A stretch of DNA of 64,000 nt from Escherichia phage NHEP29 (PQ511150.1); one strand, 5' to 3'. Shown: positions 43,341-46,650, counted from the first letter of the stretch. Program-made: numbers and translations. Notes: a model not told the origin generated them from the letters alone.

Positions 43341-43645
43341 TATAATGTTCTCTCAAATTTGTGGAAGCATTTACGGCATTTCAATTTCAAGTTATCAGTA
43401 GTCCAGTTAACCAGTTGGACTTGGATAGTTCCACATTCCGGGCATGGATGTTTTGCTGCCGATTTGGCAGCATTTTCACGTCGTTCAACCATTTTCATGA
43501 TTTCGTTCCATGCCGGAGGAACGAACTCTTCTTCACCGTGGATTTTATCTCGCTGAACAAATTCAATCTTTGAACTATCGTCAATAAACTTAACCAAGCC
43601 ATGATTAGTGCTCATATCAATATCCTCTAAAAGACGTAGTTTCAT
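43340..43645 (-). CDS. zinc-ribbon protein (101 aa)
   Basis: CPEC...CRKC; TAATG overlap; Met11 is an alternative start. Confidence 0.55.
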   Translation of the reverse strand: MKLRLLEDIDMSTNHGLVKFIDDSSKIEFVQRDKIHGEEEFVPPAWNEIMKMVERRENAAKSAAKHPCPECGTIQVQLVNWTTDNLKLKCRKCFHKFERTL

Positions 43646-44595
43646 TATAAAACCTCAATGGCGTTTCGTAAACCATCAGCTTTTGCATTCAGAGCTTTTA
43701 ATGATTTAGTTTGTTCTGCAATCTGGGCTTCGACTTCTTTCAGACGAGATTTGAGATATTCGCGTTCTTCTCTTAAATTATCAACTTTTTCTACTTTAGG
43801 TTCTTTAATAGGCTTAGGTTTATACGTATTAGGGTTCTTCAGCTTAATTTGAATACGAGAACTGAATAACATTGAACCGTTATCTTCGGTTTCGCTGAAC
43901 ATTTCAACAACATCCATAGTCTGTAACATCATACGAAGTTTATAAGACAACGAACGAACGGTTTTGTTGTGCTTATTAATTTCTTCGGCTTTCATGGTAC
44001 CGAGATTACGTGAGTAGTAATACGGAACCTGGATATCAATTGACAATGATGCGTTACCATTACCAGTTGGTTTGAATACTGCAGTAACCCAATCCTTAAC
44101 ATGAACCGTATTTGTACGATCATCGCCGCCTGTGAATAATTTACGTGAATGTTTAAAAAGCATATTCACTTGGTTATTGAATTCACAAGCAAATTTATCA
44201 GCAAATTTAGTTTCAGGAATGGTAGATAACCAATCAGCTAAATGAGTCTTTTTAACATCGTTAATAATAGTAAATTCAACTAAATCAGTTTTAGATGTCA
44301 CAGATTTAATAAAGCTCGGCTTCATAAAGTTTTTAATGTTATCACGAGCCACAGTAGAAGATAACAAACGAGAACGTTTGAACCATTGAAGCAGTGTCCC
44401 TAATGAATGAGAATACGCATTCTGAGTATCTTTACAGATATGATTTTCTTGACCTGTATATGTACCAAAATCTCGAAGAATACCACTTACTACATCTCGG
44501 TGTGGAACATCAAATCCTAGTGCACCAGTAGCGCGCTGAGCATGAACGTTAGCGATAAGACCTGCAAAATAATCAATGTAATGTGAACGTGTCAT
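43645..44595 (-). CDS. hypothetical protein with C-terminal coiled coil (316 aa), paralog set A
   Basis: Own PeSL promoter; C-terminal heptad-rich tail. Confidence 0.65.
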   Translation of the reverse strand: MTRSHYIDYFAGLIANVHAQRATGALGFDVPHRDVVSGILRDFGTYTGQENHICKDTQNAYSHSLGTLLQWFKRSRLLSSTVARDNIKNFMKPSFIKSVTSKTDLVEFTIINDVKKTHLADWLSTIPETKFADKFACEFNNQVNMLFKHSRKLFTGGDDRTNTVHVKDWVTAVFKPTGNGNASLSIDIQVPYYYSRNLGTMKAEEINKHNKTVRSLSYKLRMMLQTMDVVEMFSETEDNGSMLFSSRIQIKLKNPNTYKPKPIKEPKVEKVDNLREEREYLKSRLKEVEAQIAEQTKSLKALNAKADGLRNAIEVL

Positions 44596-44610
44596 AATAT
44601 TTTCCTCTCG

Positions 44611-44655
44611 TTAAGATAGAAAGATTATACTCCAACCATCCTTGGTTGTAAACTG
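44611..44655 (-). promoter_or_regulatory. PeSL early promoter (copy identical to 3201..3245)
   Basis: 45 bp identical: ttaagatagaaagattatactccaaccatccttggttgtaaactg. Confidence 0.7.
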
Positions 44656-44657
44656 AT

Positions 44658-45605
44658 TTATGATTTTAATGCATTCATTGCGTTAAAAAGTTTAGAGTAC
44701 TGCAACTGGAGCTTGGTAACTACTTGTTGAGCATCACGAAGCTTAGCTTGTGCTTTGTCAAGTTCAACGGATAGTTGGTCTACAGTGGCCTTTATTTGAT
44801 TATAATGGTAATCTTCGGCAGGAAGAAGACCATTAGAGATTTCCAGTTTTGCTTCCGGTAAAGTATATACAGACGGTGTGCCGTTAAACATAACAGGTTG
44901 TGCTGAAGCTGCATTAATCTTACCGATAATCGGTGTAATAATTGACGCTTCGAACGTTGCATTTTCCTTTTTAAGATTTTGATAGTATTCAGAGTCTTTG
45001 TGCCACCATGGCGCAGGAACCTTTTTACCAATAGATACACGGGCCTGGATAGCGATATGGCCCTTATTCTTGATAGGGTTGATAATATTAAGCTCACGAG
45101 AATAAATTGCTTTAATCTGGTGAATATTATCACCTAACACTTCCAACGCTTGGTGGAATACACGAGCAACGTTATCATTCTTAGGTTTATACGTAAGAGT
45201 GAACTCATTCTCACTGATAACCATGATTTCTAACTTATCGTAAGTATATTTCAAATGTTTCATATTAATTGCTTGAGGACGAATACGAGAAGCAATGGCC
45301 ATCAGATTGTTAAGGTTATTCCGGAACTGCTTAGCGAAATATTGTCCTTCACCGCCAATACAAAAATTACGAAGTTTCTGTTTGGCTAATAAACGGCTGA
45401 ACTCACCATTTTTAATGAACTCTTTAACGGGTGTGTTAGTAACGCATTCAAATTGAGTAAACTTACGAGAAGTAATCCCATAATATGAACAGACTTCCTC
45501 AATCTCTTCAGGAGTCTTTACAGGCATACGGATAGGATTAGGACCTGGGGTATATGCGTTCGAGGTAAATTCTTTGATAAGTTCTCTACGTGTAATAAAA
45601 GCCAT
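44658..45605 (-). CDS. hypothetical protein with C-terminal coiled coil (315 aa), paralog set A
   Basis: Own PeSL promoter; C-terminal coiled coil. Confidence 0.65.
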   Translation of the reverse strand: MAFITRRELIKEFTSNAYTPGPNPIRMPVKTPEEIEEVCSYYGITSRKFTQFECVTNTPVKEFIKNGEFSRLLAKQKLRNFCIGGEGQYFAKQFRNNLNNLMAIASRIRPQAINMKHLKYTYDKLEIMVISENEFTLTYKPKNDNVARVFHQALEVLGDNIHQIKAIYSRELNIINPIKNKGHIAIQARVSIGKKVPAPWWHKDSEYYQNLKKENATFEASIITPIIGKINAASAQPVMFNGTPSVYTLPEAKLEISNGLLPAEDYHYNQIKATVDQLSVELDKAQAKLRDAQQVVTKLQLQYSKLFNAMNALKS

Positions 45606-45629
45606 TTTATATTCCTCATGTTGAAAAAT

Positions 45630-45660
45630 TTATTATACTCCAACCATCCTTGGTTGTACA
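45630..45660 (-). promoter_or_regulatory. PeSL early promoter (third copy, 27-bp identical core)
   Basis: attatactccaaccatccttggttgta shared with the 3201 and 44611 copies. Confidence 0.65.
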
Positions 45661-46650
45661 TCATTCCTTAAGAAGTTTTACTACTTGAATAAGATTAGCT
45701 CGTTCTGTTTTATTTTTACCGTTTAAGCCTGCTAATCGTGAGATTTCATCGTCAGTCTGTTGAATAGTTACATTAAGTTCATTAATCAAAGCTTCAAAGT
45801 ATTTGATTTGCTCAGCATGTTTTGATTCAAATTTCTGAACCGGAATAACGTTCAGTTCATCAATAAGGTCTTTAAGAGCATCTTCTTGGTTGATGTCATA
45901 TTCAACTTCTTTTATTTCTTCAACGAGCTCGTCTTTATATCTAACGTCTTTTAGTCCTGGAGCTGGTCCTGAAATCTCTTCTTTAAGAGTACAAACATAT
46001 CCAATACGGTATTGGATACCGTCTCGCTTGATATCAACTTCGTCAATAAATCCACAATGTTTAAGACCAGAGCCGATTAGGTCAAAATATCCTTGACGTC
46101 GTCCTTCAAACGTTACACGAACTACTAAGACAGTTTTACCTGCAACCTTTTGAAGCTCACATTTATAAAAGTCTGTTGAACCTGAATAACGTGGATGAGT
46201 TTTAAAGTTCATCTGACGATCTAGGCCCATTTGTAAGCGTGCTGATACGGCCATAAAACGTGTTTGGTTCTCGTTAAGATGAGCAACAATCCATTTCAAA
46301 GGCATTTTACACTGTTCACGACCGAACAAATCAGTACGTCCTAGATTACGCAGGATGTTGTTAGAGTTAATCATCGACAGAACGTTAAGTTTATTCAGCG
46401 CGCTGAAGATTCCATCGGCCATTGATTTTCCGTAACCTTTACACGCTTTAATAAGCGCTCGCGGTAGATTAGTATAGATTTCAGACGGCATATGAAAATC
46501 AAATTTACTAGTCAGTAATTGATGAACTTGGATAGCAATTTGTTCATAATTAAGTGCTCTGCGATCATTATGGTCTTTAAACCACACTTTAATCTGTGAA
46601 GCACATAAACCGTTAATTTCATGTTTTACCGCATCAGATGTAATGCTCAT
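45661..46650 (-). CDS. hypothetical protein with C-terminal coiled coil (329 aa), paralog set A
   Basis: N-terminal globular region plus C-terminal coiled coil. Confidence 0.65.
   Translation of the reverse strand: MSITSDAVKHEINGLCASQIKVWFKDHNDRRALNYEQIAIQVHQLLTSKFDFHMPSEIYTNLPRALIKACKGYGKSMADGIFSALNKLNVLSMINSNNILRNLGRTDLFGREQCKMPLKWIVAHLNENQTRFMAVSARLQMGLDRQMNFKTHPRYSGSTDFYKCELQKVAGKTVLVVRVTFEGRRQGYFDLIGSGLKHCGFIDEVDIKRDGIQYRIGYVCTLKEEISGPAPGLKDVRYKDELVEEIKEVEYDINQEDALKDLIDELNVIPVQKFESKHAEQIKYFEALINELNVTIQQTDDEISRLAGLNGKNKTERANLIQVVKLLKE

Follow-up and report, generated by a model that had tools for sequence, protein, structure and literature searches.

In the genome of Escherichia phage NHEP29 (PQ511150.1) three consecutive genes on the minus strand probably form an array of counter-defence paralogs. 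The encoded proteins would belong to a superfamily restricted to T-even-type phages, and the middle gene is gained or lost by recombination between promoter repeats. The genes are termed genes 1, 2 and 3 by increasing coordinate, and all positions refer to the window, i.e. the whole stretch of 64,000 nucleotides (nt) that was analysed. A 4-kb stretch around the three genes shows 99.5% identity with Escherichia phages NHEP36 and NHEP11; with JS09 and phi25-307 the value is about 97%. Among the T4-type phages, the window phage belongs to the genus Mosigvirus (RB69/JS09-like), and the segment is the nrdC.3/nrdC.5/nrdC.6 part of the nrdC-mobD hyperplastic region.

Gene 1 (43645-44595), gene 2 (44658-45605) and gene 3 (45661-46650), all on the minus strand, encode proteins of 316, 315 and 329 amino acids (aa). 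The open reading frames (ORFs) lie exactly where the initial annotation had placed three consecutive genes of about 320 aa. Within the genus, comparison with two congeneric genomes gave ratios of nonsynonymous to synonymous substitution rates (dN/dS) of 0.06-0.07 for genes 1 and 3 and of 0.26 for gene 2. Since these values are low (0.06-0.26), all three are real genes under purifying selection. Relationships to T4 were taken from the annotations of JS09 and T4 at matching positions and from direct BLASTP comparison. Gene 1 is the ortholog of T4 nrdC.3 (57% identity over 316 aa, E 1e-122); it matches phrog_1435 (E 9e-106), and PF26897 is precomputed on its homologs. Gene 2 is NrdC.5-like and represents a distant ortholog of T4 nrdC.5. 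It matches Pfam PF23882 (DUF7235) over residues 15-314 with E 6e-112 and 374 bits (gathering cut-off 30), T4 NrdC.5 matches the same family with E 5e-126 and 421 bits, and the two proteins share 23% identity (E about 1e-8). Gene 3 is the nrdC.6 ortholog, with 29% identity to the T4 protein, 33% over 303 aa (E 1e-32) to the 295-aa form of other Tequatroviruses, and a match to phrog_2257 (E 1e-124).

Recombination at a promoter repeat

A synthetic junction, from which gene 2 and one promoter copy had been removed, was searched against the phage collection. It yielded a contiguous 809-bp match with 94-96% identity in 20 records, corresponding to 18 phages. These gene-2-less phages include p000v, F2, AV109, AV110, AV114-116, AV118, G2285, G2469, WFK and WFL6982, and the annotations of p000v and AV109 place nrdC.3 and nrdC.6 next to each other, 57 nt apart. 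In the recombinant alignment the sequence to the left of the promoter core is that of the window gene 2 promoter, and the sequence to the right is that of the gene 1 leader (44596-44623, minus strand), which comprises the 5' leader with the Shine-Dalgarno sequence GAGAGGAAA and is kept in the recombinants. Therefore the crossover took place within the 27 nt common to both promoters. Recombination mediated by promoters, as suggested in the initial annotation, is thus documented in natural Mosigviruses, and the two promoter cassettes described there as near-identical are in fact identical over these 27 nt.

The 27-mer TACAACCAAGGATGGTTGGAGTATAAT occurs exactly at 44624-44650, 45632-45658 and 3214-3240, and with two compensatory mismatches at 2656-2682, always on the minus strand. 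These four matches in the window compare with 0.00 expected, and all of them precede accessory ORFs. The copies before genes 1 and 2 form a direct repeat with a spacing of 1008 bp. Because these 27 nt are the same in both early promoters, homologous recombination between them would remove or insert a 1008-bp unit consisting of one promoter and gene 2. A mini-circle excised during infection is predicted to measure 1008 bp.

Two junction haplotypes were found, TATAATCTTTC... and TATAATGAATC..., each of which matches a right flank that is also present in gene-2-containing genomes. This may point to several events or to subsequent exchange. About 151 records contain a Mosigvirus-type gene 3, 132 contain gene 2 and 20 contain the deletion junction. 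These record counts fit a simple two-state polymorphism in which both states coexist in nature.

Promoters of the array

The gene 1 promoter (44624-44652, minus strand), the downstream copy of the repeat, consists of a -35 hexamer TTTACA (44652-44647), a 17-nt spacer and a -10 hexamer TATAAT (44629-44624), and agrees with the sigma-70 consensus in 11 of 12 positions. Its spacer contains the inverted repeat CAACCA-AGGA-TGGTTG (44648-44633), the last G of which begins a GGAG tetranucleotide (44633-44630). The gene 2 promoter (45632-45660, minus strand) is the upstream copy and has the same spacer hairpin. Its -35 hexamer TGTACA (45660-45655), 17-nt spacer and -10 hexamer TATAAT (45637-45632) give 10 of 12 consensus positions. 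The stop codon of gene 3 (45663-45661) abuts the 5' side of this -35 hexamer, which starts at 45660.

No early promoter was found before gene 3 (46686-46710): -35 and -10 hexamers do not match, and TTTAC lies just 11 nt from TATAAT. Instead, a putative MotA-dependent middle promoter is located at 46686-46713 on the minus strand, with a MotA-box-like element AAACGCTTTA (46714-46705), followed by 13 nt and the -10 hexamer TATAAT (46691-46686). In T4 middle promoters the MotA box has the consensus (a/t)(a/t)(a/t)TGCTTtA and is placed 12 +/- 1 bp from the -10 element (PMC2988021), from which AAACGCTTTA departs by one mismatch, C for T. The stretch of 13 nt contains the hairpin ACCC-AAGGAC-GGGT (46705-46692), whose CAAGGA core is common with the early-type copies. 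The mapped start site of the T4 middle promoter PnrdC.7 is 53325 (Hinton 2010, PMC2988021, Table 1), and the T4 counterpart of the gene 3 element, just past the nrdC.8 stop codon, has its +1 at 53325, i.e. at the PnrdC.7 start. Both elements share this position, the GCTTTA box, a TATAAT at a distance of 12-13 bp and the CAAGGA hairpin core. They differ in stem bases, which are compensatory, and in the gene served, since nrdC.7 has moved next to nrdC in the window phage, so that the promoter directly drives the nrdC.6 ortholog. As the gene 3 element is the ortholog of PnrdC.7, only genes 1 and 2 have an early promoter of their own.

The cassettes resemble the promoter early stem-loop (PeSL) elements of T4-type phages (Arbiol 2010, Comeau 2014) in being short, repeated, promoter-bearing intergenic elements in a hyperplastic region, each before a non-essential ORF. 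In both systems recombination between neighbouring copies removes or adds units of promoter and ORF, with the crossover inside the element. In PeSL cassettes, however, a stem-loop lies upstream of an AT-rich region and acts as a terminator (PMC2839356, PMC4122927). In the window, by contrast, the inverted repeat is found inside the spacer between -35 and -10, is weak (about 6 bp) and is not terminator-like. There is no room for a separate stem-loop, because only 0-5 nt separate the preceding stop codon from the -35 hexamer. A strong sigma-70 early promoter, as is typical of PeSL, precedes genes 1 and 2, whereas the third element is a middle promoter of the MotA type. Consequently, the description of each gene as standing behind its own PeSL promoter is adequate for genes 1 and 2 as far as the early promoter is concerned; it fails for gene 3 and for the terminator function of the stem-loop.

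A terminator reading of the hairpin was rejected, as its stability is not unusual (z of -0.6 to -2.2 where it is formed). Folding z of the three junctions was about -1.0, -2.2 and +1.0, and that of the related cassettes near 3 kb was -0.6 and -1.0. On the minus strand no terminator-like site was detected at the three junctions, and a scan of 42500-47500 with Rfam revealed no RNA family. The stem itself covaries. Among eight distinct promoters (from the window, T4 and the genomes L003 and L012), 89.6% of the cells pair compared with 64.5% in shuffles, a figure that is inflated because part of the promoter set was chosen by requiring the stem. Four of the six pairs are changed on both sides, and slid controls reached 17-40%.

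GGAG is the tetranucleotide cut by the T4 endoribonuclease RegB. It stands directly after the spacer hairpin in every early-type copy of the window (44630-44633, 45638-45641, 3220-3223 and 2662-2665, minus strand), and likewise ahead of nrdC.3 in T4 and of nrdC.4 in L012. Judged by its position, it could serve as a RegB processing site on read-through transcripts.

Gene content of the array in other T4-type phages

The array differs in gene content between phages, as a comparison with other T4-like genomes demonstrates. The order is nrdC.6-nrdC.5-nrdC.4-nrdC.3 in T4, nrdC.6-nrdC.5-nrdC.3 in the window and nrdC.6-nrdC.5-nrdC.4, without nrdC.3, in the IMG/VR genome L012; the polymorphism of gene 2 adds to this variation. 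More distant T4-like genomes (L013-L027) carry a single gene of 330-390 aa with a helical tail at this place, adjoining nrdC.2, so that copy number at the locus ranges from 1 to 4 across genera. Conserved one-to-one orthologs in T4, which according to the initial annotation would speak against a cassette array if combined with a lack of structural relationship, do exist for all three genes in the literal sense (nrdC.3, nrdC.5 and nrdC.6). T4 nevertheless carries, between nrdC.3 and nrdC.5, the additional gene nrdC.4 of the same size, a demonstrable paralog of nrdC.3 that has no counterpart in the window. The T4 reference nrdC.6, in addition, is truncated and has lost the family tail.

In the T4 reference (L001, NC_000866, 8067-8894) NrdC.6 comprises 275 aa with a different end, ...FNNMMMKFSDYLD, and in other Tequatroviruses (e.g. 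L007, 4963-5850) it comprises 295 aa with the family tail ...EKLIKIVDLLKS. A different reading frame of the T4 DNA still encodes the tail upstream of nrdC.5, and the T4 reference nrdC.6 looks as if it carries a frameshift. The annotated NrdC.5 of RB69 (NC_004928, 51014-51972, P0051) has 300 aa and has lost the family C-terminus, and tblastn covers the gene in two pieces, which suggests a frameshift or a sequencing error in this record. In L016 (IMGVR_UViG_2974742932_000001) nrdC.4 is split into ORFs of 193 and 158 aa and apparently is a pseudogene; this is further evidence that array members are dispensable.

The direction of the gene 2 polymorphism deserves consideration, since gene 2 might instead be a foreign cassette that entered a two-gene ancestor by integration of a PeSL mini-circle. 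The junction is symmetric and the sequence alone gives no direction. An insertion would also agree with the lack of an own promoter in T4 nrdC.5, compared with the duplicate of the gene 1 promoter carried by gene 2 of the window, and with the far greater divergence of gene 2 from T4 relative to gene 1. Loss is nevertheless the simpler direction, because the DUF7235 gene holds the same position, between nrdC.6 and nrdC.4/nrdC.3, in Tequatroviruses and in L012, and presence is therefore the simpler ancestral state. The preponderance of records with gene 2 (132 versus 20) points the same way. Hence, we regard an insertion as rather doubtful.

A family of diverged proteins

Profile-profile comparison was performed with hhalign on family alignments built from the window, T4 and 24 related loci; C3, C4, C5 and C6 denote the families of nrdC.3, nrdC.4, nrdC.5 and nrdC.6. 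C3 and C4 are linked with 97% probability, and both genes are placed in phrog_1435. The combination of C3 and C4 matches C5 with 85% (E 6e-6) over 142 columns, all of which lie outside the coiled coil. C3, C4 and C5 together match the single-copy genes of other genera with 80-94%, and C6 matches all others with 95.4% (E 1.7e-8) over 213 colinear columns, and still with 82% when the last 60 residues are trimmed from every sequence. The links are colinear over 130-240 columns. Controls gave 0.1-0.5% with one side reversed and at most 0.7% with the unrelated neighbour family Y0. The latter is a conserved ORF of 256-266 aa ending in ...THSFFKRPS.., which in L013-L026 precedes the single family member at a distance of two to four ORFs, occurs neither in T4 nor in the window, and served as the negative control.

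In a library of 1.84 billion proteins, the nrdC.3-family profile retrieved the nrdC.4 representative with E 5.6e-6. This whole-library search returned just five representatives; it confirmed nrdC.4 and made the alignment no deeper.

The proteins of genes 1, 2 and 3 share a core that includes a helix of the pattern [FW]-x-x-x-[FL]-[NR]-x-N-...-A-x-[RK], represented by DKFACEFNNQVNMLFKHSRKL, QYFAKQFRNNLNNLMAIASRI and KWIVAHLNENQTRFMAVSARL, respectively. The extreme C-terminal tails end in ...GLRNAIEVL, ...KLFNAMNALKS and ...NLIQVVKLLKE, respectively, and in other genera in ...AKLLHAMQELRK and ...QKLASAVEALNEE. The tail pattern is found in 26 of 36 family members and in 1 of 551 other ORFs of the same loci, and counts as supporting evidence only, because it was written after the family had been seen.

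All three proteins conclude with a helical segment, at residues of about 267-315 in gene 1, where it follows a globular region, about 262-314 in gene 2 and about 279-329 in gene 3, where a heptad pattern marks it. In the AlphaFold2 models a single C-terminal helix is predicted with confidence, spanning residues 275-315 in gene 1 and 262-314 in gene 2. With a crude heptad score, the maximum falls at the C-terminal end of each protein (residues 267-307, 263-315 and 279-307 for genes 1, 2 and 3), with z of 2.4-4.4 against shuffles. The C-terminal coiled coils claimed earlier are thus represented by a heptad-patterned helix of 40-50 residues in each protein, for which coiled-coil-like is a fair term. 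Only these helices are the usable part of the AlphaFold2 models. Foldseek comparison of the gene 1 model with the viral models of BFVD returned NrdC.3 itself first, followed by proteins of 300-350 aa from Acinetobacter phage Acj61 and Serratia phage CBH8 with probabilities of 0.85-0.97 and a low template modelling score (TM-score). The PDB sequences gave no match to a hidden Markov model of the gene 2 family, and NCBIfam yielded weak coiled-coil noise only.

Taken together, the profile links and the similar architecture indicate that genes 1-3 encode what are probably strongly diverged members of one superfamily with a distant common ancestry.

Putative role in counter-defence

Upon expression of T4 nrdC.5 from a plasmid, a T4 deletion mutant is again able to infect cells with the sirtuin defence Dsr1 (Srikant et al. 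2022, PMC9391042), the sensor of which recognises the phage major capsid protein (PMC13581612). The products were listed as unknown in the initial annotation, which is outdated for the nrdC.5 family in view of this report. Among T4 neighbours, nrdC.1 inhibits Septu (bioRxiv 10.1101/2025.11.20.689424) and gp49.2 inhibits OLD (PMC13096335). The window has no counterpart of T4 nrdC.1. Gene 2 shares with T4 NrdC.5 the full-length match to the Pfam family, the position, the size and the prereplicative expression; it differs in its low identity and in the promoter of its own.

Between window and T4, identity is 77-83% for nrdC.8, nrdC.10 and nrdC.11, which flank the array, and only 23-57% for genes 1-3. 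Counter-defence or host-range modulation is most likely the role of the three proteins, each of which would have a target of its own. This reading is based on prereplicative expression, dispensability, variable copy number and extreme divergence between genera combined with purifying selection within the genus, and further on the neutralisation of Dsr1 by T4 NrdC.5 and the anti-defence activities of its neighbours gp49.2 and nrdC.1.

For the proteins of genes 1-3, neither an enzymatic or nucleotide-binding domain nor a solved relative or an NCBIfam family was found. In many GenBank records of Mosigviruses and Tequatroviruses, whole runs of nrdC.x ORFs including genes 1-3 are labelled thioredoxin. 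No thioredoxin or glutaredoxin family was matched at E <= 0.1, and a CxxC motif is absent from all three translations. The label was rejected as name propagation from nrdC.x.

Weighing the interpretation

According to the favoured reading, a single ancestral gene, which in other T4-like genera stands beside nrdC.2, would have been expanded to three to four tandem copies in Tequatro- and Mosigviruses. Members would consist of about 250 variable globular residues, a linker and a coiled-coil-like C-terminal helix of 40-50 residues, with a shared tail of roughly R-x-K-L-x-x-A-[VIM]-x-x-L-K at the helix end. Genes 1 and 2 would each be transcribed from their own strong early sigma-70 promoter, and gene 3 from its MotA-type middle promoter and by read-through, with no terminator between the genes. 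Each protein would bind a different host immune protein via its variable part, and the conserved C-terminal helix would presumably mediate oligomerisation or docking.

Several observations weigh against this reading. Pairwise BLASTP among the proteins of genes 1, 2 and 3, the alignment check proposed at the outset, found no similarity. Direct hhalign comparisons with the gene 3 family are weak (1.9% for C3, C4 and C5 together against C6, 56% for C6 against the family designated X6 and 46% against X8), and since these family-to-family scores are weak, membership of gene 3 rests on merged MAFFT profiles of low diversity. The globular parts of the AlphaFold2 models are poor. The mean predicted local distance difference test (pLDDT) score was 59.8 for gene 1 with the family alignment and 40.4 for gene 2 with a merged alignment of all three families. 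Word-index searches had yielded close relatives only (33, 19 and 4 proteins), hence the alignments were too shallow for AlphaFold2. The gene 1 model had no Foldseek match in the PDB at E < 0.08. Structure prediction consequently failed to demonstrate a common fold, and the claim that the genes are paralogs stands on the profile links (85-97%, with clean controls) and the similar architecture, with neither BLASTP nor the models in its favour. The absence of gene 2 was judged at the locus, not by a whole-genome scan for a relocated copy, and a repeat of 27 nt is short for efficient homologous recombination in T4. Finally, the anti-defence role is an extrapolation, as gene 2 and T4 NrdC.5, the protein tested, have an identity of only 23%.

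Some of these points would suit three unrelated, conserved T-even accessory ORFs of coincidental size and with coincidental helices, preceded by ordinary early promoters without a special role, for which the profile links would be artefacts of low-diversity, helix-rich profiles. BLASTP similarity is nil, positional orthologs exist one to one in T4, PHROGs and Pfam keep the proteins in three separate families, and the structure models cannot decide. Such artefacts, however, would hardly account for links that are colinear over so many columns, survive without the coiled-coil tail and are lost when reversed sequences or the unrelated neighbour family are used, nor for the significance of the nrdC.3-nrdC.4 link in the whole-library search. 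Moreover, a copy number that ranges across genera from 1 to 4 at one and the same locus and a deletion junction exactly in the promoter repeat would not be expected of unrelated ORFs, which makes this explanation unlikely. It is very improbable that the paralogs form one hetero-oligomeric early complex via their C-terminal helices with a housekeeping role, e.g. in nucleotide or DNA metabolism near the nrd genes: the conserved tail, the co-located and co-oriented genes without terminators between them and the strong purifying selection on genes 1 and 3 would agree with it, but 18 natural phages do without gene 2, copy number differs from genus to genus, plasmid-borne T4 NrdC.5 is by itself sufficient to restore infection of Dsr1 cells, searches revealed neither an enzymatic nor a nucleotide-binding domain, and the thioredoxin labels in GenBank reflect propagated names.

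An extension of the favoured reading, a counter-defence array of one superfamily, is put forward tentatively. NrdC.3, NrdC.4, NrdC.5, NrdC.6 and the single-copy gene of 330-390 aa might represent one modular counter-defence family, in which a fast-evolving N-terminal part recognises varied host immune sensors, Dsr1 being the first known target, and the conserved C-terminal coiled-coil tail oligomerises or docks. Its repertoire might be expanded and pruned by recombination at a promoter subtype with a covarying CAAGGA hairpin in its spacer, possibly a signal for recombination or RNA processing.

Neighbouring genes and a second array

One flank of the gene trio is formed by nrdC (glutaredoxin, 42671-42949) together with the nrdC.7-like and nrdC.2 genes, the other by nrdC.8, nrdC.9 and the AAA-like nrdC.10. 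The nrdC.7-like membrane protein (42927-43340) directly adjoins nrdC in the window; its position in T4 is between nrdC.8 and nrdC.6. NrdC.10 (47725-48726, minus strand) shows weak matches to AAA and STAND-NTPase families (E 2e-4 to 5e-2). Between nrdC.10 and nrdC.11 lies an ORF of 91 aa (48775-49050, minus strand) that is not present in T4; in JS09 an ORF is annotated at the equivalent position.

A second tandem array of paralogs occupies positions 1741-3250 on the minus strand, downstream of dexA (3249-3926) and dda (3936-5249). Its genes are located at 2688-3182, 2170-2625 and 1741-2160 (minus strand), the last two being 45% identical, and all three share the C-terminal motif GF[IV]SD[QR]WVEDG..LYN[IV]VF. 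The promoter cassette of genes 1 and 2 also precedes the first two of these. The cassette at 3183-3250 is identical to the gene 1 upstream region over 46 nt, and the copy at 2656-2682 has two compensatory changes in the stem.

Biological implications

The set of T-even ORFs and the kind of evolutionary mechanism are already known, and the array is not a new kind of system. What is added is evidence that the ORFs belong to a single diverged family, a natural case of clean recombination at the promoter repeat, which is the strongest new result, and a promoter subtype with a covarying spacer hairpin. The junction is among the cleaner natural cases of cassette gain and loss by short homology in T4-type genomes. 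Phage pairs with and without gene 2 (NHEP36 or JS09 versus p000v or AV109) represent near-isogenic material for host-range studies. With gp49.2 acting on OLD, NrdC.1 on Septu and NrdC.5 on Dsr1, the gene 49-mobD region of T4 is emerging as an anti-defence island. If the proteins indeed form one family, the single known activity would offer a hypothesis, open to testing, on three large T4 ORFs to which no function has been assigned in decades.

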